This document shows, one piece after another, positions 3,232-63,054 of a stretch of DNA of 64,000 nt. The number at the start of each line of letters is the position of its first letter. The first letter of the stretch is position 1. The notes under the pieces were generated by a model. It saw nothing but the letters and a program-made list of their open reading frames with translations, made no database searches and was not told the DNA's origin. Origin of the DNA: Vicinamibacterales bacterium (lineage in GTDB: Bacteria > Acidobacteriota > Vicinamibacteria > Vicinamibacterales > UBA8438). Position numbers and translations under genes: made by a program. The DNA lies in contig OZ244656.1 in NCBI GenBank assembly GCA_965218825.1, positions 1,882,480 through 1,946,479 on the forward strand. The letters are read 5' to 3'.

Positions 3232-3305
3232 TTCGGATTGCCCGCGGCGGACTGCGTTTCGAGTTCGACGACCGTCGTGGCCGCCGCCCCGCCACCCGCC
3301 GCCAC
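2885..3305 (-). pseudogene. possible phage terminase large-subunit N-terminal fragment (frameshifted, truncated)
   Basis: Two overlapping minus frames (3012-3305 and 2780-3295). Sits directly downstream of the HTH small-terminase-like gene. Assignment rests on gene order and weak resemblance only. Confidence 0.3.
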
Positions 3306-3311
3306 CTTGCG

Positions 3312-3641
3312 CTACCGGCGCGTGGTCACGTCCGCCTGACTGCGCGCGTGCCCCTCCCGGGCCGCCCGCGCCCGGCGCTCCGCCATCAGTACCAGCTTGG
3401 TCCGATAGGCCTCACCCACCTGCGTCAGGGTGGCCTGCCCTCGCGTGAGGATGCGCCGGAGGGCCTTGGACACCCCGGCTTGCGTGAGCCCGACCTCGGC
3501 GGCGATCTGGCGTTGGCTCCAGCGCTCGAGGGCCAGGTCCAAGATGCGTTCATCGCGACGCATCCGCGTGACGGGGGGCTCGTAGCCCTGCTGGCCGCCG
3601 CGCGCGGGGGTTCGCCGAGCCGGGGAGCGCCGGCGGGTCAT
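3312..3641 (-). CDS. HTH DNA-binding protein, phage terminase small-subunit-like
   Basis: 109 aa with a sigma-70 region-4-like HTH (RWSQRQIAAEVGLTQAGVSKALRR). 4-nt overlap with the upstream methyltransferase. Confidence 0.5.
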   Translation of the reverse strand: MTRRRSPARRTPARGGQQGYEPPVTRMRRDERILDLALERWSQRQIAAEVGLTQAGVSKALRRILTRGQATLTQVGEAYRTKLVLMAERRARAAREGHARSQADVTTRR

Positions 3642-4942
3642 CGCGCCCTCCCCCGCCGGCGGGCCGGGGCGCGACCCGGGGTGAGGTGGACGGCCGTCTG
3701 TCCGGTGAAGGCTTCCCAGCGTCGCCGGGCGACCTCCACGTAGATCGGGTCCACGTCCATGGCATACGTGGGGCGCCCGAGCTTTTCGCCGGCAATCAGT
3801 GTGGTGCCCGACCCGACGAAGGGGTCATAGACGGCGTCCTGCGCCGTGGTGTGATTGAGGATCGGGATCTCGAACACCCGCACGGGTTTCTGCGTCGCAT
3901 GGCCGGTGGGCGTGTTGGCCCCGGTCCGCGAGCCGCCAATGGCGTTCAGATTGGGCACCTCCCACACGGTGCTCTGCGCCCGGCCGCCGTACCACGGGGC
4001 GGCGCGCCCCTGCCGCACGGCGTACCACGCCGGTTCGTGTTGCCAGTGGTACGCGCCGCGGCCCAGCACGAACGTGATCTTCGCCCACACGATCTGACTC
4101 CGGACCTCGAACTGGGCCTGCCGGAGGCCCGCCATCACCACGTCGGCAAACAAGGCCGCGTGCCACACGTAGGCGACGTCGCCGGGGAAAAGCGCATAGG
4201 CCGCCGCCCAGTCGGCCCGGGTGTCATTGGTGACCCGCCCCACGGCGGTGCGCTGCCGGGGATAGGCCTGGTGCCGAAACGCCGGCTGATAGTTCACGCC
4301 GTAAGGGGGATCGGTCACCATCAGGCACGGGGTGGCCCCGGCGAGGAGCCGGGCGACATCCGTCGCCGACGTCGCGTCCCCGCACGCGAGGCGGTGGCGG
4401 CCGAGTTGGAACACGTCGCCGCGCCGGATCGTGGTCGTGGTGGGCGGGGCCAGCACGGTGTTCTCGTCGGGTTGCGCCTCCGGCCCCTCCGGGGCGAGCA
4501 GCCGGGCAAACTCCTCGGGGGTCCAGAAGGCCTCCAGGGCCACGCCCGCCTGTTCGAGCTGCCGCAGCACGGCCGGGTCCCAGTCCAGGTCGAGTTCGGC
4601 GACCCGGTTGTCGGCCAGTGCTAATTCCTGGGCACGGGGGTCGGTCCGCGCGTCCAGATCCACCCGCTGCACCACGACGAGTGTCTCGCCCGTGGTGGGC
4701 ACCACCGTGATCGGGAGCCCCAGGTGCTTGGCCTGTTCCACGGTCTTGTGCCCCCCCAGAATGCGCCCCCGCGTGTCGATCACGATGGAGCGGCCCGCGC
4801 CGTACGTGTGCAGACTGCGCCGCAGGGCCTCGCGGCCTCGATCCGTCCCGCGGTTGGCGTTGAGGGGATCGGGCTGCAGGTCGTCGATCGACTGAATGGG
4901 TGTCTGGCGCGCCCGCGTCGAGGGTCTTTTGGCCGGAGTCAT
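3638..4942 (-). CDS. ParB-like nuclease domain fused to a DNA N4/N6 methyltransferase (phage type)
   Basis: N-terminal ParB-like LQPDPLNANRGTD. MTase motif IV TDPPYG and motif I DPFVGSGTT in beta-class order. Start placed at MTPAKRP (4942), which overlaps the upstream stop. Confidence 0.8.
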   Translation of the reverse strand: MTPAKRPSTRARQTPIQSIDDLQPDPLNANRGTDRGREALRRSLHTYGAGRSIVIDTRGRILGGHKTVEQAKHLGLPITVVPTTGETLVVVQRVDLDARTDPRAQELALADNRVAELDLDWDPAVLRQLEQAGVALEAFWTPEEFARLLAPEGPEAQPDENTVLAPPTTTTIRRGDVFQLGRHRLACGDATSATDVARLLAGATPCLMVTDPPYGVNYQPAFRHQAYPRQRTAVGRVTNDTRADWAAAYALFPGDVAYVWHAALFADVVMAGLRQAQFEVRSQIVWAKITFVLGRGAYHWQHEPAWYAVRQGRAAPWYGGRAQSTVWEVPNLNAIGGSRTGANTPTGHATQKPVRVFEIPILNHTTAQDAVYDPFVGSGTTLIAGEKLGRPTYAMDVDPIYVEVARRRWEAFTGQTAVHLTPGRAPARRRGRAR

Positions 4943-8823: not shown

Positions 8824-8989
8824 TTCGCCTCACCGAGACGGCATCCGCTCGGGTCGACATCGGCACTGGAACCACCGCTTCGAACCGGGAAGTCCTCGGC
8901 AAGTGCACGGCCGGATCGCCGAAGCGTTGTTCGATCTCGTACTGTCCAAGAACCCGATCGACGCCGTCCGACGGGCTGATTCTACGCTG

Positions 8990-9400
8990 GACGCTCGCCG
9001 GGTCGCGACGCCCAGGGCGAGGGCGTCCCGGACAGCGCCGCTGACGTGGGCGAGCCGAAAGTCTTCGAGCAGCCGCAGCACCTGCACGTACTCGCGCGTC
9101 CCCGCCTTGCCCAGCCGGGCCTCCAACAGACGCCGTAGCCGACCAAACGCTTCCGGCAGCTCCCAGCCGGCGAGCGGCGCCGCTTGATCGAGCGCCCCGG
9201 TCTTGCGCTCCAGCAAGGCCAAGTAGTGCCGCGGCTCGAAGATCAACGCGTCCCGCTCGTCGCTGCGAGGATGGCGGGCGATTACGGTGCCGCCAACCAC
9301 TTGCACCAGACGGGCTTTCGGAGGATTAATTTCGAGGGCCCGAAACCAGGTGGGGTGTCGTCCGAACAGGCCTCCGTCTTCTACAAAACCCAAAACTGCC
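8990..9400 (-). pseudogene. IS21-family IstA transposase, C-terminal fragment
   Basis: FEPRHYLALLERKTGALDQAAPLAGWELP...TREYVQVLRLL matches the conserved IstA C-terminal region. No N-terminus or IstB present. Confidence 0.65.
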
Positions 9401-14765: not shown

Positions 14766-16197
14766 GAAGGTGCGCGAAACTTAGTTGGGAATTGAAGCGG
14801 CTCCAAACCCTGTGGTTTGATGACGTTGCCTAAGACGAACATCACGCCACGAGAGAAAGGAGCCGAGATGAGCAGTGTCCTACGACCCGTCAGGAAGCGC
14901 AAGAAGGTTCGCACGTTGGGCCCGGTCGACGTCATCGACCGGAAGGAGTACGCCGAACTGGACGTCGACACCAAGGTGGAGTTGATCCGGTCCTTGGTGC
15001 CGCTGGGGTTGCTGCATGTCGAGGAGTTGCTCGACGCGGAGGTGACGGCGCTGGCGGGCGGGCGCTATGCCCGCAAGGACGCATCGGTCGGCGGGCGTCG
15101 TCATGGCAGCAACCCCGGGACGGTCGGGTTGGCCGGCCAGCGCGTGCCAATTCGCGTGCCACGGATTCGCCATGTCGCGGGGAGCGAGATGCCGCTGCGG
15201 TCCTACGAGGCGTTGCATGGGGAGCGCGCGGTGAACGACCTGCTGCTGAAGCGCGTGCTGTACGGAATCTCGTGCCGCAACTACGAAGCCGCCGCGGCGG
15301 CGATTCCCGGAGCCATCGGGCTGTCGGGGTCGACCGTGTCCCGGGGCTTTATTCAGGCTAGCGCGGCGAAACTGCGGGAGCTCCAGGAGCGGGACCTCTC
15401 CGGCGAGGACGTGGTGGCCGTGGTCCTGGACGGCAAGACCGTTGCCGAGGCAACGATGGTCATCGCGCTGGGCATCACGATGGCGGGGGAAAAACGCTTT
15501 CTGGGCTTCGTCGAGACGGATACCGAGAACGAGAAAGTGTTGACCCCGTTCTTGCGGTCGTTGGTCGAGCGGGGTCTTGACGTCTCCCAGGGCGTGCTGG
15601 TGATCCTCGACGGCGGCAAGGGGCTGCGATCAGCCGTCCGCAAAGCCTTCCGGGACCGGGCGCTGGTCCACCGGTGCCAGTGGCATAAGCGCGAGAACGT
15701 GGTGAGTTACCTGGCCAAGACCGAGCAGGCGTCGTGGCGCCAGCGCCTCCAACGCGCCTACAACCGTCCGGAATACGACGAAGCCCGCGCGGCCCTTGAG
15801 ACGCTCCATCGCGAGCTGGAGGACCGGAACCAATCGGCGGCCCGCAGCTTGGCGGAAGGCTTCGACGAGACCTTGACGCTGCATCGACTCGGGCTCTACG
15901 GCGTTCTGGGCCGCTCGCTGAAGACGACGAACTGTCTGGAGTCCGTCAATGCGCTCGTCGAGGAACGCTGCGCGAAGGTCGATCACTGGCAAAACTCGCG
16001 TCAACGTCACCGCTGGCTGGCGACCGCGCTCTTGGACATCGAACCGCGCCTGCGCAAGGTGATGGGGTACCGGCACCTGCCCACGCTCCGTGCCGCGTTG
16101 AAGCGAGAACTGAAGATCGACACGACGACGTCGAAGAAGAAAGCCGCGTAGTCAATCAGGAGCCGTAGAGAGTTTCAACTAAGAATGGGCTTGACTC
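14766..16197 (+). mobile_element. IS256-family IS, type 2 (1432 bp) with 8-bp TSD
   Basis: Flanked by TCCGGGAC at 14758-14765 and 16198-16205. Termini share CTTAGTTG and CGGCTCC blocks in inverted orientation. Confidence 0.85.
14820..16151 (+). CDS. IS256-family transposase, type 2 (443 aa)
   Basis: Full ORF, colinear with IS256-type transposases but divergent from type 1. ATG at 14820 (a TTG lies at 14817). Confidence 0.85.
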   Translation: MTLPKTNITPREKGAEMSSVLRPVRKRKKVRTLGPVDVIDRKEYAELDVDTKVELIRSLVPLGLLHVEELLDAEVTALAGGRYARKDASVGGRRHGSNPGTVGLAGQRVPIRVPRIRHVAGSEMPLRSYEALHGERAVNDLLLKRVLYGISCRNYEAAAAAIPGAIGLSGSTVSRGFIQASAAKLRELQERDLSGEDVVAVVLDGKTVAEATMVIALGITMAGEKRFLGFVETDTENEKVLTPFLRSLVERGLDVSQGVLVILDGGKGLRSAVRKAFRDRALVHRCQWHKRENVVSYLAKTEQASWRQRLQRAYNRPEYDEARAALETLHRELEDRNQSAARSLAEGFDETLTLHRLGLYGVLGRSLKTTNCLESVNALVEERCAKVDHWQNSRQRHRWLATALLDIEPRLRKVMGYRHLPTLRAALKRELKIDTTTSKKKAA

Positions 16198-39063: not shown

Positions 39064-39877
39064 ACTTTGGCCAGCGGCGGGCCTGGTAGCCTAACAAGAT
39101 CATGAAGCAGCCAATCCGACCGGCGATCTTCAAGTGGCGGCAGACGGCTCCGGAGGTGATTCTTTGCGCCGTGCGCTGGTATCTTCGGTACTCACTCTCG
39201 CTCCGCGATGTCGAAGAGCTCCTCGATGCACGCGGCCTGCAAGCGGACCACACGACGGTCTGGCGCTGGGTGCAGCGCTACGGGCCGGAACTCGAGCAGA
39301 GGCTGCGCCGGCATCTCAAGCCAACCAACAAATCCTGGCGTGTTGATGAAACCTATGTGCGGGTCAAGGGCCGCTGGTGCTATTTGTATCGGGCTATTGA
39401 TTCCACAGGCGCCACCATCGACTTCCTCCTGTCAGCGCTCCGCGATGCTGCGGCGGCCAAACGGTTGTTTCGCCAGGCGCTCAGCGATCCATCGCATCCG
39501 CAGCCCCGCGTCATCAACACCGATCAGGCCCGCCTCTACGGCGCGGCGATTCCAGCCGTGAAAGAGGACGGCACCCTGCGCGGCCGCTGCCGCCATCGGC
39601 CGGTCCAATACTTGAACAATATCCTGGAGCAGGACCATCGAGCGATCAAACGACGGGTAAAGGCCAAACAGGGGTTTCGCGAGTTTCACGCGGCGCGGCG
39701 GACAATCCAAGGCTACGAGGCAATGCACATGATTCGGAAGGGGCAGGCGAGGTGGGTGAGCGGCTCGGATGTGTGGCGCCAGATTCAGTTCATCAACAGG
39801 CTGTTCGAGGTGGCGGCATGAGACCTCGATACCGAAACGGCTTCCGTCACCACTTTCAAAGTTGGGTCCTTCCGGGT
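39049..39877 (+). mobile_element. IS6-family IS (boundaries approximate)
   Basis: Left end GGATGTGTTGCACACTTTGG resembles the IS6/IS26 IR consensus. I could not identify the right IR. Confidence 0.55.
39102..39821 (+). CDS. IS6-family transposase (239 aa)
   Basis: AVRWYLRYSLSLRDVEELL...WRVDETYVRVKG...LYRAID...NNILEQDHRAIKRR signature. Confidence 0.85.
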   Translation: MKQPIRPAIFKWRQTAPEVILCAVRWYLRYSLSLRDVEELLDARGLQADHTTVWRWVQRYGPELEQRLRRHLKPTNKSWRVDETYVRVKGRWCYLYRAIDSTGATIDFLLSALRDAAAAKRLFRQALSDPSHPQPRVINTDQARLYGAAIPAVKEDGTLRGRCRHRPVQYLNNILEQDHRAIKRRVKAKQGFREFHAARRTIQGYEAMHMIRKGQARWVSGSDVWRQIQFINRLFEVAA

Positions 39878-40054: not shown

Positions 40055-41240
40055 GGTGCTTGCGCCGCTCGCTGTTGATCAGGCCGCCGCTCGCTGTTCG
40101 TACGACCATGAGAGCGGCGGCAACCCGCCCGCGGCAGTTTCGACGACCGCCACAAACACGCGCAGACGGACAAGCCGCCCTGTGAAGATGTCGCTCAGGG
40201 CCAATCGCCTGCTCACCAGACGGGCCTGCATGGCTGGGGTCCTCGTTTCGCGCCCGAACCGCAAGGCCCGGTGCGGTCGGACGAAGTTGTAGTGGCACCG
40301 CACGAGCTCGACGTGGCTGCGGAGCTGGTCTGCGTCACGGGCGTGGCAGGGCGAGCGCCGGCGCAAGTACGCCGACGCTTGCCGAATCGTGAGGTTGAGG
40401 CGCTCGACGAACGAGGTGTTCAGGGTCTCGGAATCCTCCGACGCCCACAACGCGGCTTTCAGTCGATTCGCCGTGCCGATCTTCACGCGCCGCTCGACCC
40501 GGACGACACGATTGTTCCGCCGTGTCTTGAGCACTTGACCATAGACGCACGTTGACCCCAAGAGAGCCCCAACCGCGCCGACGTAGTACTCGAAGCCATC
40601 GGTGGCGATCAGGGGACATCCCACGACTCGGCCCCGGCAGATGACGTCTTCGATGACGGCCCTGGCGTTTCGATCGGAGCGGCGCCCCAGGACGCTACTG
40701 GCCCACACGCGGGAGGATACCTCGATGGTCGCAAACAGCCAGACCGTTGTGCTCTTGTTGCCGATGAACGTGCAGAGCTCATCAGCTTGCAGCTCAATGA
40801 GGTCGAAGTCGCGCAACATCCGGTCGTTGAAGTGCTTCGCGGCCGTTGAGGCTCGCTCGAGCCAACGCGCGACGGTATTGCGGGAGTGGCCTGTGACGCG
40901 GGCGGTCGCCGAAATGCTCACGCCTTCGACGCGCAGGCTTGCGACTTGGTCGAACTCCCGTCGCGTGCAGCGAAGCCCACTGTAGGCCGTCCCCGTGTTC
41001 GTGCTGAGCGTTCCCCTGCAGACTGTGCATCGGTAGCGCCGTCGTCGGCCCGACTTCGTCGCAAACGAGCCGTAGCCCACGATGTTGAGGCCCGGTTTTC
41101 CACGATTGTCACACCCGGGCGTGGCGCACGCCATCCCGTCGATCGCGTTCATTGCTCAAGGGTACCGGGGGCGAGCCCGTCGTTTCCTCCACGATCTCGG
41201 AGGTAAAGCTGACCGATCAACAGCGACCGGCGCAAGCACC
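40055..41240 (-). mobile_element. IS1-like IS (1186 bp)
   Basis: 26-bp IRs GGTGCTTGCGCCGCTCGCTGTTGATC / GGTGCTTGCGCCGGTCGCTGTTGATC (1 mismatch). Confidence 0.8.
40079..41152 (-). CDS. IS1-family-like transposase (Zn finger + HTH + DDE, 357 aa)
   Basis: N-terminal CxxC...CxxC. NTSFVERLNLTIRQ...YNFVRPHRAL tail as in IS1-type enzymes. Confidence 0.6.
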   Translation of the reverse strand: MNAIDGMACATPGCDNRGKPGLNIVGYGSFATKSGRRRRYRCTVCRGTLSTNTGTAYSGLRCTRREFDQVASLRVEGVSISATARVTGHSRNTVARWLERASTAAKHFNDRMLRDFDLIELQADELCTFIGNKSTTVWLFATIEVSSRVWASSVLGRRSDRNARAVIEDVICRGRVVGCPLIATDGFEYYVGAVGALLGSTCVYGQVLKTRRNNRVVRVERRVKIGTANRLKAALWASEDSETLNTSFVERLNLTIRQASAYLRRRSPCHARDADQLRSHVELVRCHYNFVRPHRALRFGRETRTPAMQARLVSRRLALSDIFTGRLVRLRVFVAVVETAAGGLPPLSWSYEQRAAA

Positions 41241-41249
41241 AGACTGCCT

Positions 41250-43442
41250 ATGGACACGAATCGAATCGAACTGACAGTGGTGTCGAGCTCGGATACGTGT
41301 GGCAGCCAGACATCCAGCCTCAACCGCTTCGGTGCCGACCCTCGTCAGGGGCGGGTGTGGTGTGACTGGCCCCACCGCACCGTCGTCCTGACCTGTGATG
41401 GAACCATTGTTTGCGGCTGCGGCGACGCCTTCAACGAGAACCCGATGGGCGATGCCCGGAAGGAGAGCGTGCTGGACATCTGGCGCGGAGAGGGATTCCA
41501 GCGCATGCGGAGCGGCATGCGAGACGGTCATCTCGTCCCCTTCTGCTACCGCTGTGGGCTCATGGAGGTCCATCCGTCCGACTTCGACGTCCCCGACCTG
41601 CCGATCGTGCCGGATGCGTACCCGCGCGAGCTCTACGTCGAGCCGACGATCGTCTGCAATCTCCGATGCCCGCAGCCGGCCTGCGTACCCGACGAGGTGT
41701 ACGACACCCGCTCGATCCGGATGCTGCCGATCGACACGTACAAGAAGGTGCTCGATGAGGTCGGACCCCATCTCGAGCGCATGGTCTTCTACAACTACGG
41801 TGAGAGCTTCATCCACCCTGACGCGTGCCAGATGATCCGGTACGCGAAGGACGTGAACCCCAACATCTGGATCTGGACCTCCACCAACGGTCACTACTTC
41901 GACAAGCCCGAAAAGGTCCGAGCGCTCGTCGATTCCGGCATCGACGAGATTCAGTTCAGCATCGATGGGGCGACCCAGGAGGTCTACGAGGAGTACCGCA
42001 AGCACGGTCGTCTGACCAAAGTGTTGGACGGGATCCGAGCCGTCATTGAGGAGCGCGAACGCCGTGGCATGCCCGGCCCGTGGATCCTCTGGAACTACAT
42101 CCTGTTCCGATGGAACGACTCAGACGAGCAGATGGAGCGCGCTCGCGCGCTCGCAATCGAGTTGGGTGTCGACCGCCTCACCTGGACGACGACCGACCAG
42201 CCGCTCGGCATGCCGTCGACCCGCTTCGTGCCGGGCTCCCCCGACTACGAGCGGATCAGGCCGGGGCTGATCGGTGCTGGGCGGGACATCCCCAATGCCA
42301 TCCAATGGCGTGCCGGAATCGAGGCGATTGACCTCCCCACGAAGGTCCGCGTCGGTGACGCCTTCGTGGCTCGCCTGCGCGTCCGCAACGAAGGTGAGGT
42401 CCGGTGGCCTTCGGCGTCGGAGCAGACCACCAGGCCAGTCCGCCTCTATGGCCGGCTGAAGCCGGCGAGCGGTGACTCCTTCGGCCGGCCCTTTCTCGTC
42501 GGAACCCTGCCGCGCGCCGTACCACCGGGAGAAACGGTCGATGTCGAGATGCACGGGTTCGCCGGGAGGGAACCTGGACACGGCCGGCTCAAGCTGGATC
42601 TTCTTTTCGGCGAGCGCTGGTGGTTCGAGGAGCTTGGGGGCGAGCCGCTGGTACAAGACCTCGAGATCGGTGACGCCAATGACCGTCCACCGCTGTTGGA
42701 GCTGGTTTCAAGTCCATCGGCCGTCCGCGCCGGCGAAGAGTTCGAGGTTGTCGTGCGGGTGCATGGCCGCGTCGACCGCCCGCTCGATGGGTCTCCGGCG
42801 GCGATGCACCGTGCCGGTGTCGGTATCCGCTGGGCCGCCAATGAGGCCGCCACCCACTCCGCCGAAGGACGACGTTGCTACTTCGAACCGCCGCTTGGCC
42901 CCGGGGAGGTTCGCGAGCTACGGTTGTCCGTCCTGGCCCCGTCCCTCACGTCCGGTCGCTGGATGGCGAAACTAGATCTCGTCATGGAGGGGCTGACCTG
43001 GTTCGAGGACCTTGGATTCGAGCCGCTGTGCCTGGAGCTCGAGGTCGACGGAGACACCGAGCCCTGTCAAGTCGCTGTGGAGGTGCTCCAGGCACCCGCG
43101 ACGGTGGCCCGCTCGGCCGCGTTCGATCTCAAACTCCGCGTCCGAAACGATTCGGACGAATCGCTTGACGGGTCCACCTCGAGCCAAGCTCTGGTCGGTG
43201 TCGGCATCCGTTGGACCGACGGGGCGGTCGGACGGGTCGCACGGGATTCCGATCGCCTTTATTTCGATCCGCCGCTGCAGCCCGGAGAAACCCGCGAACT
43301 TCTGCTGCGTGTGCCCGAAGGAGCACTCTCCGCAGGCACGTTCGTCGCACGGGTCGACCTGGTGAAGGAGCATCACTTCTGGTTCGAGGAAAAGGGCGCA
43401 CGGCCTTCGAAGTTCGAGCTCCTCATCTCCGAACCATCCTGA
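41250..43442 (+). CDS. radical SAM protein with N-terminal SPASM/twitch-like Cys-rich region and three C-terminal Ig-like (NBR1-like) repeats
   Basis: CDGTIVCGCGD...PFCYRCG, then VEPTIVCNLRCPQPAC, NYGESF, WTSTNG, FSIDG. Three ~115-aa repeats end (W)WFEE / WFED / WFEE. Confidence 0.7.
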   Translation: MDTNRIELTVVSSSDTCGSQTSSLNRFGADPRQGRVWCDWPHRTVVLTCDGTIVCGCGDAFNENPMGDARKESVLDIWRGEGFQRMRSGMRDGHLVPFCYRCGLMEVHPSDFDVPDLPIVPDAYPRELYVEPTIVCNLRCPQPACVPDEVYDTRSIRMLPIDTYKKVLDEVGPHLERMVFYNYGESFIHPDACQMIRYAKDVNPNIWIWTSTNGHYFDKPEKVRALVDSGIDEIQFSIDGATQEVYEEYRKHGRLTKVLDGIRAVIEERERRGMPGPWILWNYILFRWNDSDEQMERARALAIELGVDRLTWTTTDQPLGMPSTRFVPGSPDYERIRPGLIGAGRDIPNAIQWRAGIEAIDLPTKVRVGDAFVARLRVRNEGEVRWPSASEQTTRPVRLYGRLKPASGDSFGRPFLVGTLPRAVPPGETVDVEMHGFAGREPGHGRLKLDLLFGERWWFEELGGEPLVQDLEIGDANDRPPLLELVSSPSAVRAGEEFEVVVRVHGRVDRPLDGSPAAMHRAGVGIRWAANEAATHSAEGRRCYFEPPLGPGEVRELRLSVLAPSLTSGRWMAKLDLVMEGLTWFEDLGFEPLCLELEVDGDTEPCQVAVEVLQAPATVARSAAFDLKLRVRNDSDESLDGSTSSQALVGVGIRWTDGAVGRVARDSDRLYFDPPLQPGETRELLLRVPEGALSAGTFVARVDLVKEHHFWFEEKGARPSKFELLISEPS

Positions 43443-43551
43443 ACGGGACGCGAGTCCCCGACGACACGCAGCCTATTCATGCTCGCCAAACACCGCCGGG
43501 CGTGAACTTCTCAATCTCTCGGTCAGGCTGGCGGCTCGCCTGTACCCGAGC

Positions 43552-44401
43552 TTGACGTTTGCCACCGTTCCTGCCGGAGAGCGGTTGGCCGATGACCTGA
43601 TTGCGTTGGCCAGTAGCATCAACCCTAACATTGAGACGTCTAAAACGGGCACTGCCAATGTCGGTCTCTCGATCGGCGTGAATGCACCGGCCGTCGACGC
43701 GCTAACCGTATACGCCGGCTGCGATGGCTGGCTAGGCAGGGTAGGCACCAAGGGTCCATACAGAACCAGCGACCTCGGAAACCCCTTTGGAGCCGGCTTC
43801 GCCGCCTGCTTGGCGGCAGCCAACCTGTTTCGCTTCTTATTCCTTCCCGACGGCCCAACTTTATTGGATGCCGATCTTCGTTTTCCTTCCGACGCTGCCT
43901 CTTTCCCGCGTCTTGTGGCCTCCACAATGACGGACCCCTTGGTGTTGGTAGGTGTTGGAGCGGTGGGCAACAGTGCCTGCTGGGCACTAGCGCGTACGCC
44001 GCTAATCGGCCAGATTTACCTGGTCGATCCACAAATCGTCGAGCTTAGCAATCTGCAGCGCTACGTTCTCTGTGCGCGGAGCGACGAAAACGGCGTCAAG
44101 GTTGATATCGTTGGGAAGGAATTTGAGGGCGCACTACGTGCGCGACTTCATCAGGGAACATGGGCGTCCTTCGTGGGGACCAATGGCTACCATTGGGAAC
44201 GCGTTCTGGTTGCCCTAGATTCCGCCCATGACCGACGAGCCGTGCAAGGGAGCCTGCCACGTTGGGTCGCTAACGCGTGGACCCAGGCAGGTGATCTCGG
44301 CGTGTCCACTCATTCTTTCTTGGGTCCCGATGCCTGTCTTGCGTGCCTTTATTTGCCAACCCAGAAATCCAAGAACGAAGACCAGATCGTCGCTGAAAGC
44401 C
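43552..44401 (+). pseudogene. E1-like ThiF/UBA-family adenylating enzyme, C-terminus cut by IS
   Basis: LVGVGAVGNSACWALA Rossmann motif, YLVDPQIVELSNLQRY, CLAC. ~130-aa N-terminal extra domain. Reading frame enters the IS IR at 44402. TTG start uncertain. Confidence 0.7.
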
Positions 44402-45490
44402 TGCCTTGGTGCACAACTCCATTGAGGGCTGAGAGTCTCCCGTGACTCCGCCTGCCGGTCATCCGATCATCTCGCCATCGGGTATCCCGAGCGCCGTCAT
44501 GGTGTTCAGGATCTTGCACCCCAACCTCACCTCGACTCTCTGGGACGCCAGTCCCCTCGCTCGCATCGCTGAGCCCAGGATGGCCTTGTAGCGGTGGAAC
44601 GTCGTCTCCACCTTGCTTCGCCTGCTGTAGCCCGATGCGACGTACCACTTCCGTTTCCCAACATGTGATCGTGCTCGGATGTTACGATTCCGCTGTCACG
44701 TGCCCGCAGAGTCGAGCGCGAGCTGAGCGCCCTTTCGTGGCGGTATCAGCACCTTCGGCGATCGATGAGCACGGTGATTCTCCAGCGTCTTATAGACGTC
44801 GCCGGTGGCGTACGCGGCGTCGGCCTTGGCCGAGGCGATGGGACGCTCGATCTGGCCGACGAGTGACGCCACCCGGGAAGCGTCTCGAGCCCGCTTGCTC
44901 GTGAGCTCGCAGGCGACCACGTCACTGGTTTGCTCATCCACAGCGAGGTGCAGCTTGCGGTAGTCCCTGGCTTTCGGCGGAGTGCGCAACTGGCCGACGT
45001 GCACTGAAAGACCGCTGCTGTCGATGCGGAGGTGGACGGGCTTCACGGTTCGCCTCTCGGAGGAAGCAACCTTCCCCAGCCTCGCCTTGCGCCTCGAGAT
45101 CGTGCTGTGGTCGGGCACGTCGTTGTCCAGATTCAGGAGCGTCAGCAGCGAGCGCAGGAAGCCCTCAGTCTGCCTGGACGCCAGGCCAAACACCAAGCCC
45201 AAGGTGACCGTCGTCTCGATGGCGTGGTTCGAGTACTTGCGTTGTCGGCCTGGCTTCCTGCGCGTCGGCCTCGGCGAGTTCCAGTTGGCGAGCTTGCCAT
45301 CGGTGAGTCCGAGCCAGACGGTCAGACTCCCGCGAGCGCGGAGACCCGTCTCGTACTCCCGCCAATTCCGGACACGGTAGGCCTTCTGGACGTACTTCCG
45401 CTGGGTGCGCTTGAAACTCGTCATGCGGGACCTCGGATCTCGGGGTGGAGGGCAATTATTGACCGAGATCGCGAGTTGTGCACCAAGGCA
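44402..45490 (-). mobile_element. IS5-family (IS903-like) IS, copy A (1089 bp)
   Basis: 18-bp perfect IRs TGCCTTGGTGCACAACTC. The 9-mers at its own two ends do not match. Confidence 0.9.
44459..45424 (-). pseudogene. IS903-like transposase with premature TGA
   Basis: TGA at 44696-44698 where copies B and C have CGA. ORF stops after 242 of 321 codons. Confidence 0.85.
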
Positions 45491-45963
45491 TGGTGCTGGC
45501 CCATGATCGACGCCAGATCCTGCATGTCAACGTGACGGGGTACCCCACGGCCGCGTGGACGGCCCAACAGATCCGCAACGCGTTCCCGTGGGACACGGCG
45601 CCACGGTTTCTGTTGCGGGATCGCGACGGGACCTACGGCCACAATTTTCGGGCCTGTCTCGAGGCGATGGAGATCGACGAGGTCCTGACGGCTCCCCAGA
45701 GTCCGTGGCAGAACCCGTATGTCGAACGACTGATCGGATCGATGCGCCGAGAGTGCGTCGACCACGTGATCGTGCTCAATGAGCGATCACTCCACCGAAT
45801 ACTGCGATCGTACATCGACTACTATCATCTCTGGCGCACGCATCTCTCGTTGGGCAAGGATGCGCCCGTGAGCCGACGCGTCGAGCCTGCTGCACCGGGC
45901 GAGGTCATGGCGATGCCGCACGTGGGCGGCCTGCACCACAGCTACCATCGTCACGCGGCCTGA
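45491..45963 (+). pseudogene. rve-type integrase, C-terminal half
   Basis: AHDRRQILHVNVTGYPTAAWTAQQ...PQSPWQNPYVERLIGSMRRECVDH. Begins at the IS junction. Confidence 0.85.
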
Positions 45964-46191
45964 CGACCGCCATGGACGGTCGCCGCCGGAAGACCGTGCA
46001 CGCCGCGCGGCGGCCGGAGGAACGTCCGAAGGACGCCAGCCACTCGTCGGCGTTCACGGAGTGCACGTCCGCGATGGCGTTGGTGCACAACCCTTCGGCT
46101 GCGACGAGGCAGCTGTAGGCTCTCTGGCCACGGTGACCGCTGCGGGTGCACGATCTCGACATGAGATCAAAGGTCCATCCGAAGTACAAGA

Positions 46192-47280
46192 TGCCTTGGT
46201 GCACAACTCGCGATCTCGGTCAATAATTGCCCTCCACCCCGAGATCCGAGGTCCCGCATGACGAGTTTCAAGCGCACCCAGCGGAAGTACGTCCAGAAGG
46301 CCTACCGTGTCCGGAATTGGCGGGAGTACGAGACGGGTCTCCGCGCTCGCGGGAGTCTGACCGTCTGGCTCGGACTCACCGATGGCAAGCTCGCCAACTG
46401 GAACTCGCCGAGGCCGACGCGCAGGAAGCCAGGCCGACAACGCAAGTACTCGAACCACGCCATCAAGACGACGGTCACCTTGGGCTTGGTGTTTGGCCTG
46501 GCGTCCAGGCAGACTGAGGGCTTCCTGCGCTCGCGGCTGACGCTCCTGAATCTGGACAACGACGTGCCCGACCACAGCACGATCTCGAGGCGCAAGGCGA
46601 GGCTGGGGAAGGTTGCTTCCTCCGAGAGGCGAACCGTGAAGCCCGTCCACCTCCGCATCGACAGCAGCGGTCTTTCAGTGCACGTCGGCCAGTTGCGCAC
46701 TCCGCCGAAAGCCAGGGACTACCGCAAGCTGCACCTCGCTGTGGATGAGCAAACCAGTGACGTGGTCGCCTGCGAGCTCACGAGCAAGCGGGCTCGAGAC
46801 GCTTCCCGGGTGGCGTCACTCGTCGGCCAGATCGAGCGTCCCATCGCCTCGGCCAAGGCCGACGCCGCGTACGCCACCGGCGACGTCTATAAGACGCTGG
46901 AGAATCACCGTGCTCATCGATCGCCGAAGGTGCTGATACCGCCACGAAAGGGCGCTCAGCTCGCGCTCGACTCTGCGGGCACGCGACAGCGGAATCGTAA
47001 CATCCGAGCACGATCACATGTTGGGAAACGGAAGTGGTACGTCGCATCGGGCTACAGCAGGCGAAGCAAGGTGGAGACGACGTTCCACCGCTACAAGGCC
47101 ATCCTGGGCTCAGCGATGCGAGCGAGGGGACTGGCGTCCCAGAGAGTCGAGGTGAGGTTGGGGTGCAAGATCCTGAACACCATGACGGCGCTCGGGATAC
47201 CCGATGGCGAGATGATCGGATGACCGGCAGGCGGAGTCACGGGAGACTCTCAGCCCTCAATGGAGTTGTGCACCAAGGCA
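46192..47280 (+). mobile_element. IS903-like IS, copy B (1089 bp)
   Basis: Same IRs as copy A. Its IRR-side 9-mer CCAGCACCA is the reverse complement of the 9-mer at the IRL side of copy A. Confidence 0.9.
46258..47223 (+). CDS. IS903-like (IS5-family) transposase, 321 aa
   Basis: YRVRNWREYETGLRARGSLTVWL N-terminus and DDE_Tnp_1-type core. Intact. Confidence 0.85.
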   Translation: MTSFKRTQRKYVQKAYRVRNWREYETGLRARGSLTVWLGLTDGKLANWNSPRPTRRKPGRQRKYSNHAIKTTVTLGLVFGLASRQTEGFLRSRLTLLNLDNDVPDHSTISRRKARLGKVASSERRTVKPVHLRIDSSGLSVHVGQLRTPPKARDYRKLHLAVDEQTSDVVACELTSKRARDASRVASLVGQIERPIASAKADAAYATGDVYKTLENHRAHRSPKVLIPPRKGAQLALDSAGTRQRNRNIRARSHVGKRKWYVASGYSRRSKVETTFHRYKAILGSAMRARGLASQRVEVRLGCKILNTMTALGIPDGEMIG

Positions 47281-47848: not shown

Positions 47849-47995
47849 GGCCCGTGATGCTAGCAGGCCGACGCGAGATCCTCAATAATGCCCAATGTAC
47901 ATAATGGGGGGACGAGGTTTTCGGTAGGCACAGGAGAGTCGCCGCCACCTGATCTGGCCCCCAGTGGTCCTTCCCGGGAAGGACTGCGCGTTTCA

Positions 47996-48257
47996 ATGTC
48001 GCTCACGGAGACACTTGAGCAGTTTCCAGGATCGATGGCACGGACCGTCCGTCTGCTTCTGCAATTCGGCACCGGGCGGCTTGAGGAGGAGAACCGCGAA
48101 CTAAAGGTTGAACGTGCTGACCTTCTCAGTCGGATTGAACAGCTCCAATATCAAGTAGCCAAGAAGCAAACCCGTTCCGCTGTGCTGGTGGATCGGATAC
48201 GACAACTCAAGGTCGCAAGACGGCTCTACCAAATTCTTCAGACGCTTGGCGACCTAG
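47996..48257 (+). pseudogene. small coiled-coil protein gene, 5-prime part (interrupted by two IS)
   Basis: MSLTETLEQF...LQTLGDL runs into the IS1182-like IR. After removal of both IS the frame continues at 50920 (DAGWHGG*). Confidence 0.55.
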
Positions 48258-49720
48258 CAGCCCGTGGTGAAAATCAGCAACGGCCTCGGCTAGATCGATC
48301 GCCAGAATCGATCATCATCTGTACACTCGTTCGCATGTCAATGGGCACACGACGCAAACGACGACGACAAGAAGCCCTCTGGGTCGCGACGACCGACTTG
48401 CCCCAGACGGTCGCCCACCCGTTCTATCGTCGAGTGAACGCCCTGCTGGACGCCCACGGTTTCGAGACGTTTGTCGAACGGCAGTGCCAGCGGTTCTACG
48501 CCGCCACCCGTGGCCGGCCAAGTCTCACGCCGGGCATCTACTTTCGCGCGTTGTTGGTGGGGTACTTTGAAGGCATTGACTCGGAGCGGGGCATCGCCTG
48601 GCGCGCGGCGGACTCGCTGGCGATTCGGCGCTTCTTGGGCATCGCCGTGGACGAGGATGTGCCGGACCACTCGACGATCTCCCGAACCCGGCGACTGATT
48701 GACGTCGAGACGCATCGCGCCGTGTTCACCTGGGTGCAGCAGCGCCTCGTCGCGTCGGGCGTGCTGAAGGGCGCGACGATCGGGATCGACGCCACCACGC
48801 TGGAGGCGAACGCGGCGATGCGGAGCATCGTGCGGCGGGACACCGGCGAGGACTACCAGGCCTATTTGACCGGCTTGGCGCAGGCGTCGGGCATTGCCAC
48901 CCCGACGCGCGACGACCTCGCCCGCCTGGACCGGAAGCGGAAGAAGACGCCATCGAACAAGGACTGGCGGAGCCCCGTCGATCCGGATGCGAAGGTCGCC
49001 AAGATGAAAGACGGCCGCACGCATCTGGCCCACAAGGTCGAACATGCCGTGGACCTCGACACCGGCGCGGTCGTCGCGGTGACCGTGCAAGGCGCAGACA
49101 CGGGGGATACGACGGTCGCCGCCGCTGCCCAGATCGAGGATGCGCAAGCCGAGGTGGACGACCCCCAGGCGTTCACCGCGCTGGTCGCGGACAAGGGCTA
49201 TCACAGTAATGAGGTCATGGTGGATCTGCAGGCCGTCGGCGTCCGGTCGTATGTCGCCGAGCCGGATCGAGGCCGCCGCGATTGGTCCAAGGCGCGGGAG
49301 GCCCAAGCGCCCGTCTATGCGAATCGTCGGCGCATTCGGGGCGCCCGCGGCAAGCGCTTGATGCGCCGACGTGGCGAGCGCATCGAGCGTTCGTTCGCGC
49401 ACGCCTACGAGACCGGCGGGATGCGGCGCACGCATCTGCGCGGGCATCGCAATATCTTGAAGCGCCTCTTGATTCACCTCGCGGGCTTCAACCTCGGCGT
49501 GCTGTTCCGGCAGCTGATCGGCGTTGGCACGCCGCGCAGCCTGCAGGGGCGCTGTCTCGCCGCGCTGATGGTCCTTGTGTCCTCCTGGCGGCGCCTCGTA
49601 CATGTCTGGACCGTTCGCGAGCCCGAGTACCCCGCGCGTTCCACGATCGGGGTCGGCGATCACGATCGATCACTCATCCCGAAAGCCGCATAGGAAGACC
49701 GCATTTCCACCACGGGCTGC
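48258..49720 (+). mobile_element. IS1182-like IS, copy 2
   Basis: Same 12-bp IRs as copy 1. Flanked by (C)TAG on both sides. Confidence 0.85.
48335..49693 (+). CDS. IS1182/IS5-type transposase (452 aa)
   Basis: Paralog of 22717-24117. ATG at 48335 chosen; the longer track ORF is a read-through from the interrupted host gene. Confidence 0.8.
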   Translation: MSMGTRRKRRRQEALWVATTDLPQTVAHPFYRRVNALLDAHGFETFVERQCQRFYAATRGRPSLTPGIYFRALLVGYFEGIDSERGIAWRAADSLAIRRFLGIAVDEDVPDHSTISRTRRLIDVETHRAVFTWVQQRLVASGVLKGATIGIDATTLEANAAMRSIVRRDTGEDYQAYLTGLAQASGIATPTRDDLARLDRKRKKTPSNKDWRSPVDPDAKVAKMKDGRTHLAHKVEHAVDLDTGAVVAVTVQGADTGDTTVAAAAQIEDAQAEVDDPQAFTALVADKGYHSNEVMVDLQAVGVRSYVAEPDRGRRDWSKAREAQAPVYANRRRIRGARGKRLMRRRGERIERSFAHAYETGGMRRTHLRGHRNILKRLLIHLAGFNLGVLFRQLIGVGTPRSLQGRCLAALMVLVSSWRRLVHVWTVREPEYPARSTIGVGDHDRSLIPKAA

Positions 49721-49722
49721 TA

Positions 49723-50917
49723 GTCCCCTTGATCTTTGATTTCTTCAAAAAGTCGTTGGTCATCTGGGGCCACCGTGGACTTGAACGGTGCGCTGTCCGA
49801 ACCGCTTCACCTTCGCGAGGATCTCGTCGGCTGTGTTCGTCCACTTGAAAGGCTTGCCCTCGTCATTGTGGGCGTCCACGTAGGCGGAGATGGCGTGGCG
49901 CAGCGCGTGCGTGCTGGAATGTGAGCCGCGCTTGAGGGCGTGTTCGGTGAGGAGGCCAAAGAACCGCTCGACGAGGTTGAGCCAGGCGGAGTAGGTTGGC
50001 GTAAAGTGGAACTGGAAGCGCGGGTGGCGGGCCACCCATCGTGTGACCAGCGGGGACTTATGCGCCGAGAGATTGTCGAGGATCACGTGGACGGTGAGGG
50101 TGGGGTCCACCCGCTCGTCGATCTCGCGCAGAAAGCTCACGAAATCCCTCGACCGATGCTGCTTCTTGGTTTGCGCCACGACCTGGCCGGTCGCGACGTT
50201 GAGCGCCGCGAAGAGGTCCACCGTGCCATGGCGGATGTAGTTGTGCGTCTGGCGTTCGGGCCGACCCATGTCCATCGGCAGGATCGGCTGCGCTCGCTCG
50301 AGGGCTTGAATCTGAGGCTTTTCGTCGAATGACAAGACACCGGCGTGGTCGGGTGGATTCAGGTAGAGGCCGACAATGTCCCGCACCTTCTCGAGGAACA
50401 GCGGGTCGTCGGAGATCTTGAAGGATTCCACGACATGCGGCTGCAACCCGAAGGTGCGCCAGATGCGGCCCACGGTGGAGGCACTGACGCCAGCGCGCTC
50501 CGCCATCTTGCGGGTGCTCCAGTGGGTCCGCCCCTTCGGCTTACTTTCCAACGTGGCGACGAGGATCGACTCGACATCCGCATCGGACAGTGTCCGGGGG
50601 GCTCCGGGCTTGGGCTCGTCATACAGCGCATCCACGCGACCTGTCGTAACCCGCTGCCGCCACTTGCCGACCGTCACATTCGAACAGCGCAGTTTCGCCG
50701 CGACCGCCACGTTCGATTCGCCATGCGCGCACCTCAGGACGATCTTCGCCCGCAAGGCCACATGCCGATTCGTTCTGGCGCGCCTGGCGAGCCGCTCAAG
50801 TTCTCCTCGCTCCACGGCGGTGACTTCCAATCTCGCTTTGGGCCGACCTGTTCTTGCCATGCCGCCCCATACATCACACCCGGCACACTTCTTAAAGCTT
50901 TTTCAGACACAAGGGAC
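49723..50917 (-). mobile_element. IS630-family IS (1195 bp) with TA duplication
   Basis: IRs GTCCCCTTGATCTTTGA / GTCCCTTGTGTCTGA. TA at 49721-49722 and 50918-50919. Confidence 0.8.
49760..50860 (-). CDS. IS630-family transposase (366 aa)
   Basis: HTH N-terminus, DEKPQIQALER, ILDNLSAHKS and YSAWLNLVERFF signatures. Confidence 0.85.
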   Translation of the reverse strand: MARTGRPKARLEVTAVERGELERLARRARTNRHVALRAKIVLRCAHGESNVAVAAKLRCSNVTVGKWRQRVTTGRVDALYDEPKPGAPRTLSDADVESILVATLESKPKGRTHWSTRKMAERAGVSASTVGRIWRTFGLQPHVVESFKISDDPLFLEKVRDIVGLYLNPPDHAGVLSFDEKPQIQALERAQPILPMDMGRPERQTHNYIRHGTVDLFAALNVATGQVVAQTKKQHRSRDFVSFLREIDERVDPTLTVHVILDNLSAHKSPLVTRWVARHPRFQFHFTPTYSAWLNLVERFFGLLTEHALKRGSHSSTHALRHAISAYVDAHNDEGKPFKWTNTADEILAKVKRFGQRTVQVHGGPR

Positions 50918-61965: not shown

Positions 61966-63054
61966 TGCCTTGGTGCACAACTCCATTGAGAGCTGAGAGT
62001 CTCCCGTGACTCCGCCTGCCGGTCATCCGATCATCTCGCCATCGGGTATCCCGAGCGCCGTCATGGTGTTCAGGATCTTGCACCCCAACCTCACCTCGAC
62101 TCTCTGGGACGCCAGTCCCCTCGCTCGCATCGCTGAGCCCAGGATGGCCTTGTAGCGGTGGAACGTCGTCTCCACCTTGCTTCGCCTGCTGTAGCCCGAT
62201 GCGACGTACCACTTCCGTTTCCCAACATGTGATCGTGCTCGGATGTTACGATTCCGCTGTCGCGTGCCCGCAGAGTCGAGCGCGAGCTGAGCGCCCTTTC
62301 GTGGCGGTATCAGCACCTTCGGCGATCGATGAGCACGGTGATTCTCCAGCGTCTTATAGACGTCGCCGGTGGCGTACGCGGCGTCGGCCTTGGCCGAGGC
62401 GATGGGACGCTCGATCTGGCCGACGAGTGACGCCACCCGGGAAGCGTCTCGAGCCCGCTTGCTCGTGAGCTCGCAGGCGACCACGTCACTGGTTTGCTCA
62501 TCCACAGCGAGGTGCAGCTTGCGGTAGTCCCTGGCTTTCGGCGGAGTGCGCAACTGGCCGACGTGCACTGAAAGACCGCTGCTGTCGATGCGGAGGTGGA
62601 CGGGCTTCACGGTTCGCCTCTCGGAGGAAGCAACCTTCCCCAGCCTCGCCTTGCGCCTCGAGATCGTGCTGTGGTCGGGCACGTCGTTGTCCAGATTCAG
62701 GAGCGTCAGCCGCGAGCGCAGGAAGCCCTCAGTCTGCCTGGACGCCAGGCCAAACACCAAGCCCAAGGTGACCGTCGTCTCGATGGCGTGGTTCGAGTAC
62801 TTGCGTTGTCGGCCTGGCTTCCTGCGCGTCGGCCTCGGCGAGTTCCAGTTGGCGAGCTTGCCATCGGTGAGTCCGAGCCAGACGGTCAGACTCCCGCGAG
62901 CGCGGAGACCCGTCTCGTACTCCCGCCAATTCCGGACACGGTAGGCCTTCTGGACGTACTTCCGCTGGGTGCGCTTGAAACTCGTCATGCGGGACCTCGG
63001 ATCTCGGGGTGGAGGGCAATTATTGACCGAGATCGCGAGTTGTGCACCAAGGCA
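61966..63054 (-). mobile_element. IS903-like IS, copy C (1089 bp)
   Basis: Same IRs as copies A and B. Flanking 9-mers GTGTGGATA and ACATGATGC differ. Confidence 0.9.
62023..62988 (-). CDS. IS903-like transposase, 321 aa
   Basis: Intact. Start MTSFKRTQ at 62988; the 406-aa track ORF is an upstream read-through. Confidence 0.85.
   Translation of the reverse strand: MTSFKRTQRKYVQKAYRVRNWREYETGLRARGSLTVWLGLTDGKLANWNSPRPTRRKPGRQRKYSNHAIETTVTLGLVFGLASRQTEGFLRSRLTLLNLDNDVPDHSTISRRKARLGKVASSERRTVKPVHLRIDSSGLSVHVGQLRTPPKARDYRKLHLAVDEQTSDVVACELTSKRARDASRVASLVGQIERPIASAKADAAYATGDVYKTLENHRAHRSPKVLIPPRKGAQLALDSAGTRQRNRNIRARSHVGKRKWYVASGYSRRSKVETTFHRYKAILGSAMRARGLASQRVEVRLGCKILNTMTALGIPDGEMIG

Follow-up and report, generated by a model that had tools for sequence, protein, structure and literature searches.

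What kind of protein is encoded by an open reading frame that follows a radical SAM gene, on the same strand, in the 64-kb stretch of DNA analysed here (referred to below as the window), and is it a working enzyme? The frame runs on the + strand from a TTG at 43552 to 44445 and the motifs GVGAVGNSACWALA, DPQIVELSNLQRY and CLAC are found in its translation. The original prediction had described an open reading frame of 283 residues with a Rossmann motif, an adenylation motif and CLAC, and all of these are present, 283 amino acids being encoded between the TTG at 43552 and position 44401. We conclude that the sequence from 43498 to 44401 is very probably a non-functional internal remnant (codons 49 to 350 of approximately 510) of bilD, which encodes the E1 of a Type II BilABCD (CEHH/6C) system for ubiquitin-like (Ubl) conjugation that was acquired horizontally. 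The window copy is the remnant of a member of this family, not a working member, and it is nothing new in kind, coming from a characterised family and an already known system.

An open frame with homology to BilD

The frame is free of stop codons from 43390 to 44445 (the nearest in-frame upstream stop, at 43363-43365, is the end of an open reading frame at 43012..43365) and is thus open, as had been stated, past the stop codon of the radical SAM gene at 43440-43442. The TTG at 43552 had been taken as the only candidate start, but there is a second TTG at 43585, preceded 5 nt upstream by a GGAG-like motif, which is used as the start of the public gene call P0003 (286 amino acids) that exists for the window copy. 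Neither TTG is the native BilD start, because 48 codons from the 5' end of the gene are missing. The feature had also been drawn from 43443, directly after the radical SAM gene, but the gene-derived sequence begins at 43498, and 43443-43497 are foreign to the E1: they hold the native 3' flank of the radical SAM gene and then 20 nt from the start of a different gene.

The prediction of an E1-type adenylating enzyme was borne out by a PDB search, in which residues 1-300 of the window protein aligned with residues 49-360 of the E1(BilD) of Ensifer aridi (8TYZ, 8tyz_A; E 2.9e-57, 42% identity), a protein of 535 amino acids with solved structures (PDB 8TYZ and 8TZ0) and with homology to every residue of the fragment, collinear across both the inactive and the active adenylation domain (IAD and AAD). 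A protein search gave more than 1,400 homologues, with a typical length of 496-516 amino acids, the best of which was P0001 (510 amino acids, 99% identical), which at full length itself matches residues 1-511 of E. aridi BilD (E 1.5e-97). At the DNA level, window 43498-44401 corresponds to codons 49-350 of the intact P0001 gene (locus L001, on a metagenome contig) with 99.6% identity; by blastn, window 43494-44402 matched L001 10141-11049 over 909 nt at 99.56% identity, which like the PDB match is far beyond chance, and no other part of the 13.6-kb L001 locus was present in the window. There are 4 nucleotide differences from the intact gene and no internal stop or frameshift in the fragment, and because of this the decay would be recent and the copy a recent pseudogene. 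The open frame makes the window copy look alive, which is a point against a pseudogene reading.

Pfam matched the window open reading frame to Prok-E2_C (E 5e-12) and then to ThiF, and the best PADLOC match for the fragment was BilD (E 1.3e-12). The Prok-E2_C match covers only profile positions 43-128 of 129 in the window, compared to 1-128 in the intact P0001. Chambers et al. describe this region of the E1, which was once guessed to be an E2, as an IAD that is paired with an AAD as in eukaryotic E1 enzymes (bioRxiv 10.1101/2023.09.26.559546), and the Pfam name Prok-E2_C on such proteins marks the IAD of a eukaryote-like E1, not an E2. A Cap2-like E2-E1 fusion, suggested by that name, was rejected as the region is the IAD in the solved homologue and as coverage by the PADLOC “E1-E2” model is small; Cap2 (the Type II CBASS E2-E1 fusion) and PADLOC “E1-E2” have the ThiF-type Rossmann nucleotide-binding core in common with the window protein, over approximately 50-65 residues only. 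The extra N-terminal domain had been suggested to be of either inactive-adenylation or peptide-clamp type, and as it aligns with the IAD of BilD the first of these suggestions holds and the second does not.

Two parts of the protein can be delimited. The first is a partial IAD (43498..43941, + strand, codons 49 to approximately 196 of approximately 510, from the Prok-E2_C match and the E. aridi alignment) and the second is the N-terminal half of the AAD (43942..44401, + strand, codons approximately 197-350, from the ThiF match), which keeps the Gly-rich ATP loop, DPQIVELSNLQRY and the first CxxC. The window copy has lost the remainder of the AAD, the second Cys pair (CIC) and the CYS domain that carries the catalytic cysteine. 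In E. aridi BilD the catalytic cysteine, C417, is reported to lie in a helical CYS domain of approximately 80 residues inserted in the crossover loop of the AAD (10.1101/2023.09.26.559546); its counterpart in the P0001 alignment is C405, and as the window copy ends at residue 350 it has no catalytic cysteine. When the L001 proteins were used in tblastn against the 64-kb window, only BilD residues 49-350 were found, residues 1-48 and 351-510 were not, and BilA, BilB and BilC were not found anywhere in it, in agreement with the original description of an incomplete copy without partners. The complete IAD-AAD-CYS architecture seen in the 99% identical P0001 is thus absent from the window copy, as is the operon context of Ubl(BilA), CEHH E2(BilB), JAB DUB(BilC) and E1. 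A protein search with the C-terminal 160 amino acids returned nothing from the source contig, which is a weak negative as the same search also missed full-length BilD proteins.

In an intact system, as described by Chambers et al., the C-terminal glycine of the Ubl BilA is laid bare through trimming by the JAB peptidase BilC, BilD adenylates BilA and then holds it as a thioester on the cysteine of its CYS domain, which is mobile, and the CEHH-type E2 BilB receives BilA and conjugates it to lysines (10.1101/2023.09.26.559546). With the CYS domain, 48 IAD residues, one half of the AAD and the second Cys pair of the Zn site all lost, the window copy is expected to be inactive as an E1.

The original prediction had also proposed membership of a family found in bacterial ubiquitin-like conjugation and defence operons, and the homology to E. 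aridi BilD places the E1 subfamily as Type II BilD, the E1 of the operons formerly called 6C or CEHH, which are the Type II BilABCD operons of Chambers et al. (10.1101/2023.09.26.559546). The closest characterised system is the Type II BilD of E. aridi TW10, with collinear homology over every window residue, but unlike that protein the window copy is without a start, the CYS domain, the catalytic cysteine, the C-terminal half of the AAD and the partner genes. The Type I BilD model (PADLOC PDLC03847), which gave the best PADLOC match, covers the IAD and the start of the AAD of the window copy in a weak and partial match (45 bits), and the partner proteins of the intact relatives match the Type I PADLOC models marginally or not at all, as is expected of the sister Type II group. 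MccB/PaaA-type and MoeB/ThiF enzymes have the ATP-binding Rossmann motif in common with the window E1. That the orthologues might turn out to be ordinary MoeB or ThiF was not what was found: the best score among the NCBIfam ThiF/MoeB models was 28.6 bits (ThiF TIGR02356, cut-off 275, with approximately 55 residues matching), the lowest cut-off among these models is 152 bits, and an ordinary MoeB/ThiF was rejected as all of the models were far below their cut-offs and as the extra IAD is present. No peptide-clamp homology was seen in the window E1 by PDB search, and no precursor-peptide or cofactor-biosynthesis context was seen at 10 intact loci.

Intact orthologues and their spread

The neighbourhoods of uninterrupted orthologues, 72-99% identical, were compared at 12 loci, of which 10 were distinct, and the gene order BilA-BilB-BilC-BilD (Ubl, CEHH-type E2, JAB, E1), tightly packed, was found in all 10. 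The Ubl of these relatives is an 88 amino acid DUF2604 protein with a C-terminal GG plus two residues (PDB Ubl(BilA), E 8e-22), the E2 is a 203 amino acid Metal_CEHH/Y4jH-like protein (E2(BilB), E 6.5e-49), the JAB-like protein has 163 amino acids (DUB(BilC), E 5.9e-35) and the E1 has approximately 510. The intact 99% identical orthologue P0001 has this same order, and its three partners match the E. aridi structures.

Compared to the E. aridi system, which is from the Rhizobiaceae, the intact relatives are from soil metagenome-assembled genomes (MAGs) carrying the labels of several phyla, and most have an extra downstream gene for a protein of approximately 255 amino acids. This fifth gene (approximately 232-255 amino acids) follows BilD in 9 of the 10 distinct intact loci, with a weak MarR-like winged-helix match near the C-terminus of its product and no PADLOC match; it is on the same strand in 8 loci, often overlapping the BilD stop codon (for example L003 9518-10285 and L005 9524-10279), and is inverted in L001 (11541-12239, opposite strand). 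Type II Bil operons are described as having four genes plus occasional CapH/CapP regulators (bioRxiv 10.1101/2023.09.26.559546), and the fifth gene may be a regulator of the operon.

Relatives 72-80% identical to P0001 at the amino acid level are found in MAGs labelled Latescibacterota, Chloroflexota, Spirochaetia, Dehalococcoidia and Gemmatimonadetes (L010-L015), and the protein search gave more than 120 homologue clusters at least 74% identical to the window fragment. The GC content is 0.565-0.595 in the fragment compared to 0.61-0.69 across the radical SAM gene upstream. This drop in GC, together with the presence of relatives in MAGs labelled as five phyla or classes, fits a horizontal acquisition of the gene, and the distribution of this Type II Bil E1 clade suggests its recent horizontal spread in soil communities. 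A published survey had placed Type II Bil operons mostly in Rhizobiaceae, and the intact relatives show them to be widespread in soil MAGs that carry the labels of several phyla, with high conservation.

Some of the intact loci sit in defence islands, with CBASS-like SMODS/patatin genes, AbiE and Bub operons. Type I Bil is reported to protect against phage via modification of a tail protein (10.1101/2023.09.04.556158), and an anti-phage role, reported for Type I, has been proposed for Type II. The Bub-type operons (Multi_ubiq, DUF6791, ThiF and BubE, at L005 4163-6244 and L006 13899-15721) are each preceded by a pair of HTH_3 and Peptidase_M78 genes and, on two unrelated contigs, are no more than a few kb from the Type II Bil operon, so that two different ubiquitin-like systems cluster together at these loci. 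On a further ENA contig (10,974 bp) the same BilD is split by a frameshift, into P0002 and P0242, directly behind ...IVAE, no more than two codons away from where the IS sits in the window; the split looks like the effect of a one-base difference in the A-run of GAAAGC and is probably a homopolymer sequencing error, not biology.

The two breakpoints

A single truncation, by an IS, had been proposed, but the gene is broken at both ends; it had been called “decapitated by an IS”, but the IS removes the tail and the head was lost at a joint free of IS sequence. A three-way alignment of the window, the radical SAM orthologue loci and the intact BilD locus, together with the blastn ranges, places this left breakpoint at 43497..43498, an illegitimate joint that lies at no IS end and whose microhomology does not exceed 1 nt; here codon 7 of a neighbouring gene meets codon 49 of bilD and the first 48 bilD codons are lost. 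The neighbour, a gene for a protein of 632 amino acids, is represented by its first 20 nt (43478..43497, + strand, ATG CTC GCC AAA CAC CGC C, MLAKHR), which align with L007 10230-10248, where the equivalent translates as MLAKHRPAQG; across the joint the window reads MLAKHRRA followed by a stop, out of frame with BilD. The idea that MLAKHRRA at 43478 is the true, frameshifted BilD start was rejected because this ATG belongs to the 632 amino acid neighbour of the radical SAM gene, and it is also contradicted by the absence of the real BilD N-terminus (MALADFFPRD...) from the window.

The radical SAM/SPASM gene (41250..43442, + strand, with Pfam Radical_SAM and SPASM matches) is full length at 730 amino acids, with an identical public gene call (P0121) and with orthologues of 729-735 amino acids that are 80-84% identical, and the orthologous block 41241-43497 matches L007 7992-10248 at 85% identity by blastn. 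In three radical SAM orthologue loci (two distinct arrangements) the 632 amino acid gene, whose product has no Pfam domain, follows after 28-37 nt, and beyond it are threonine dehydratase-like PALP genes, rhodanese, LolA and EPSP synthase. The E1 is absent from all three of these loci, each having the 632 amino acid gene instead, and a radical SAM homologue is absent from all 10 distinct intact BilD loci, so that the link to the radical SAM gene which had been predicted was not found from either side. The adjacency of radical SAM gene and E1 is a scar of deletion or illegitimate recombination, not an operon, because the spacer and the neighbour's first 20 nt precede the joint, out of frame with BilD codon 49.

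This bears directly upon the option that a functional two-domain E1 acts with the upstream radical SAM enzyme in RiPP or peptide modification, in the manner of MccB/PaaA. The two genes are on the same strand, the E1 frame is open to the radical SAM stop codon and MccB is the second-best PDB match to the fragment, but the MccB alignment (E ~7e-4) is confined to residues 137-208, a 72-residue stretch in the Rossmann core, the N-terminal region resembles the IAD of BilD and not a peptide clamp, the 55-nt gap is made of the radical SAM gene's native 3' flank and its real neighbour's start, and conserved linkage of the two genes is absent from both sets of loci; this option is effectively refuted and its probability is negligible. 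A different doubt would be that the joint at 43497/43498 is an assembly chimera, since the source is apparently a metagenome-assembled genome, the closest intact copy (99.6%) is from the same ENA assembly group (ERZ2506-ERZ2507) and the joint is not at a repeat and shows 1 nt of microhomology at most. This is very unlikely, as assemblers rarely join at unique sequence and as the fragment, just 909 bp long, has a clean IS end at its other side, and a chimera would alter neither the identity of the fragment as a piece of BilD nor the spurious nature of the radical SAM link.

At the right breakpoint, BilD homology stops after ...IVAESL at 44401/44402, where the 18-bp terminal inverted repeat TGCCTTGGTGCACAACTC starts; here the original placing of the end of the gene, at an IS903-like inverted repeat at 44402, was exact. 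The last 160 or so codons of bilD, including those for the catalytic-cysteine domain, were lost at this IS5-family element (copy A, 44402..45490, - strand, located from its inverted repeats and the junction alignment), which is 1089 bp in length with perfect 18-bp terminal inverted repeats and whose transposase has a premature stop (CGA to TGA near 44696), giving 242 amino acids compared to 321. Copy B (46192..47280, + strand), which is inverted relative to A and was recognised as a 1090-nt inverted repeat, encodes a transposase with Pfam matches to DDE_Tnp_1_5 (1.9e-23) and DDE_Tnp_1 (1.6e-16), and a copy C was found by inverted repeat search at 61966..63054 (- strand). The DDE_Tnp_1-type transposase, the short inverted repeats and the 9-bp target duplication are all features of the IS5 family (IS903-like group). 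A degenerate IS-end-like 18-mer is also present at 46076-46093.

The right flank of copy A (TGGTGCTGG) and that of copy B (CCAGCACCA) are reverse complements, and an rve-type transposase gene is split between the two flanks, with its C-terminal half at 45491-45963 (+ strand) and its N-terminal half at 47713-47281 (- strand); the halves join seamlessly across the flanks (...VFVVL|AHDRRQILHV...), and TGGTGCTGG/CCAGCACCA could be reconstructed as the 9-bp duplication of an IS insertion in the rve gene. An IS thus inserted into the rve gene with a 9-bp duplication, and recombination between A and B then inverted the segment between the copies. No matching 9-bp duplication was found at the BilD junction, and when the A-B inversion is undone the IS end on the BilD side is still without a matching CTGAAAGCC duplication; the flanks of copy C carry neither a matching 9-bp duplication nor BilD sequence. 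It had been thought that the missing 3' part might lie beside another IS copy with the 9-mer CTGAAAGCC, and in the 64-kb window none of the flanks of the three IS copies carried BilD sequence or this 9-mer; the 3' part of bilD must therefore have been lost in another deletion or recombination mediated by the IS.

Taking the two breakpoints together, bilD would have been destroyed by two separate events. A deletion or illegitimate recombination would have brought codon 49 of bilD up against codon 7 of the downstream neighbour of the radical SAM gene, removing bilA, bilB, bilC and the start of bilD, and insertion of an IS5-family element, followed by IS-mediated deletion or recombination, would have led to the loss of all that follows codon 350, including the catalytic cysteine.

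A remnant of this kind could still be translated, and a truncated protein made from the TTG at 43552 or 43585 might have a partial role in Ubl or ATP binding, or interfere with an intact Bil system elsewhere. The frame of 297 codons is open, the ATP-binding loop and first CxxC are kept, and the GGAG-like motif and the public call P0003 at the TTG at 43585 would be in keeping with such a product. We nevertheless consider it highly improbable, as the protein would be without 48 IAD residues, all of the CYS domain and, along with the C-terminal half of the AAD, the second Cys pair of the Zn site, as E. aridi BilD is reported to be insoluble, even at full length, unless it is co-expressed with BilB and BilA (10.1101/2023.09.26.559546), and as there is no native promoter or start at a locus which is a patchwork of IS elements and gene fragments. 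More speculatively, and extremely unlikely in our estimation, a product translated from an internal TTG, comprising the partial IAD and the half of the AAD that binds ATP, could serve as decoy or regulator for a Bil system encoded elsewhere in the genome, or the juxtaposition of radical SAM gene and E1 could be an early step towards a new operon. The bilD remnant is better seen as a further instance of a defence gene that has decayed in IS-rich surroundings, in keeping with the fast turnover by gain and loss that defence systems are expected to show, and as an example of why adjacency in IS-dense patchworks is not to be read as an operon.

IS-dense surroundings and the radical SAM gene

The region around the remnant is a patchwork of IS elements and gene fragments, with approximately 7 transposase genes or IS elements of several families between 39100 and 50900 of the window. 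Besides IS5-family copies A and B and the split rve-type IS, these include an IS6/IS240-type DDE transposase (39102-39821), a DUF772/DDE_Tnp_1 element (47888-49693) with inverted repeats at 48254 and 49723, and a DDE_3-type transposase that is probably IS630-like (49760-50860). Another IS (40055..41240, - strand), recognised from its 33-bp inverted repeats and encoding a 357 amino acid transposase with weak rve_3, HTH and IS1 Pfam matches, ends 1 nt before the radical SAM block (41241) and 9 nt before the radical SAM start codon.

The radical SAM protein has an unusual layout, in which a Cys-rich SPASM/twitch-like segment precedes the radical SAM core, and C-terminal to the core are about three Ig-like repeats (a direct repeat with 378-nt spacing, and weak A2M and N_BRCA1_IG matches). 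In all of the relatives the next gene downstream is the 632 amino acid gene (L007 8001-12128; L008 and L009 8001-12119), and the 632 amino acid protein may be a substrate or partner of the radical SAM protein. Elsewhere in the window, 3268-4146 and 8937-9010 are 95-100% identical to L009 1-879 and 1416-1489, which lie beside the radical SAM orthologue and include an N6_N4 methyltransferase region, and window 16036-16197 is 100% identical to L008 1-162 (a Transposase_mut region); these shared segments indicate mobile DNA that is common to these genomes.
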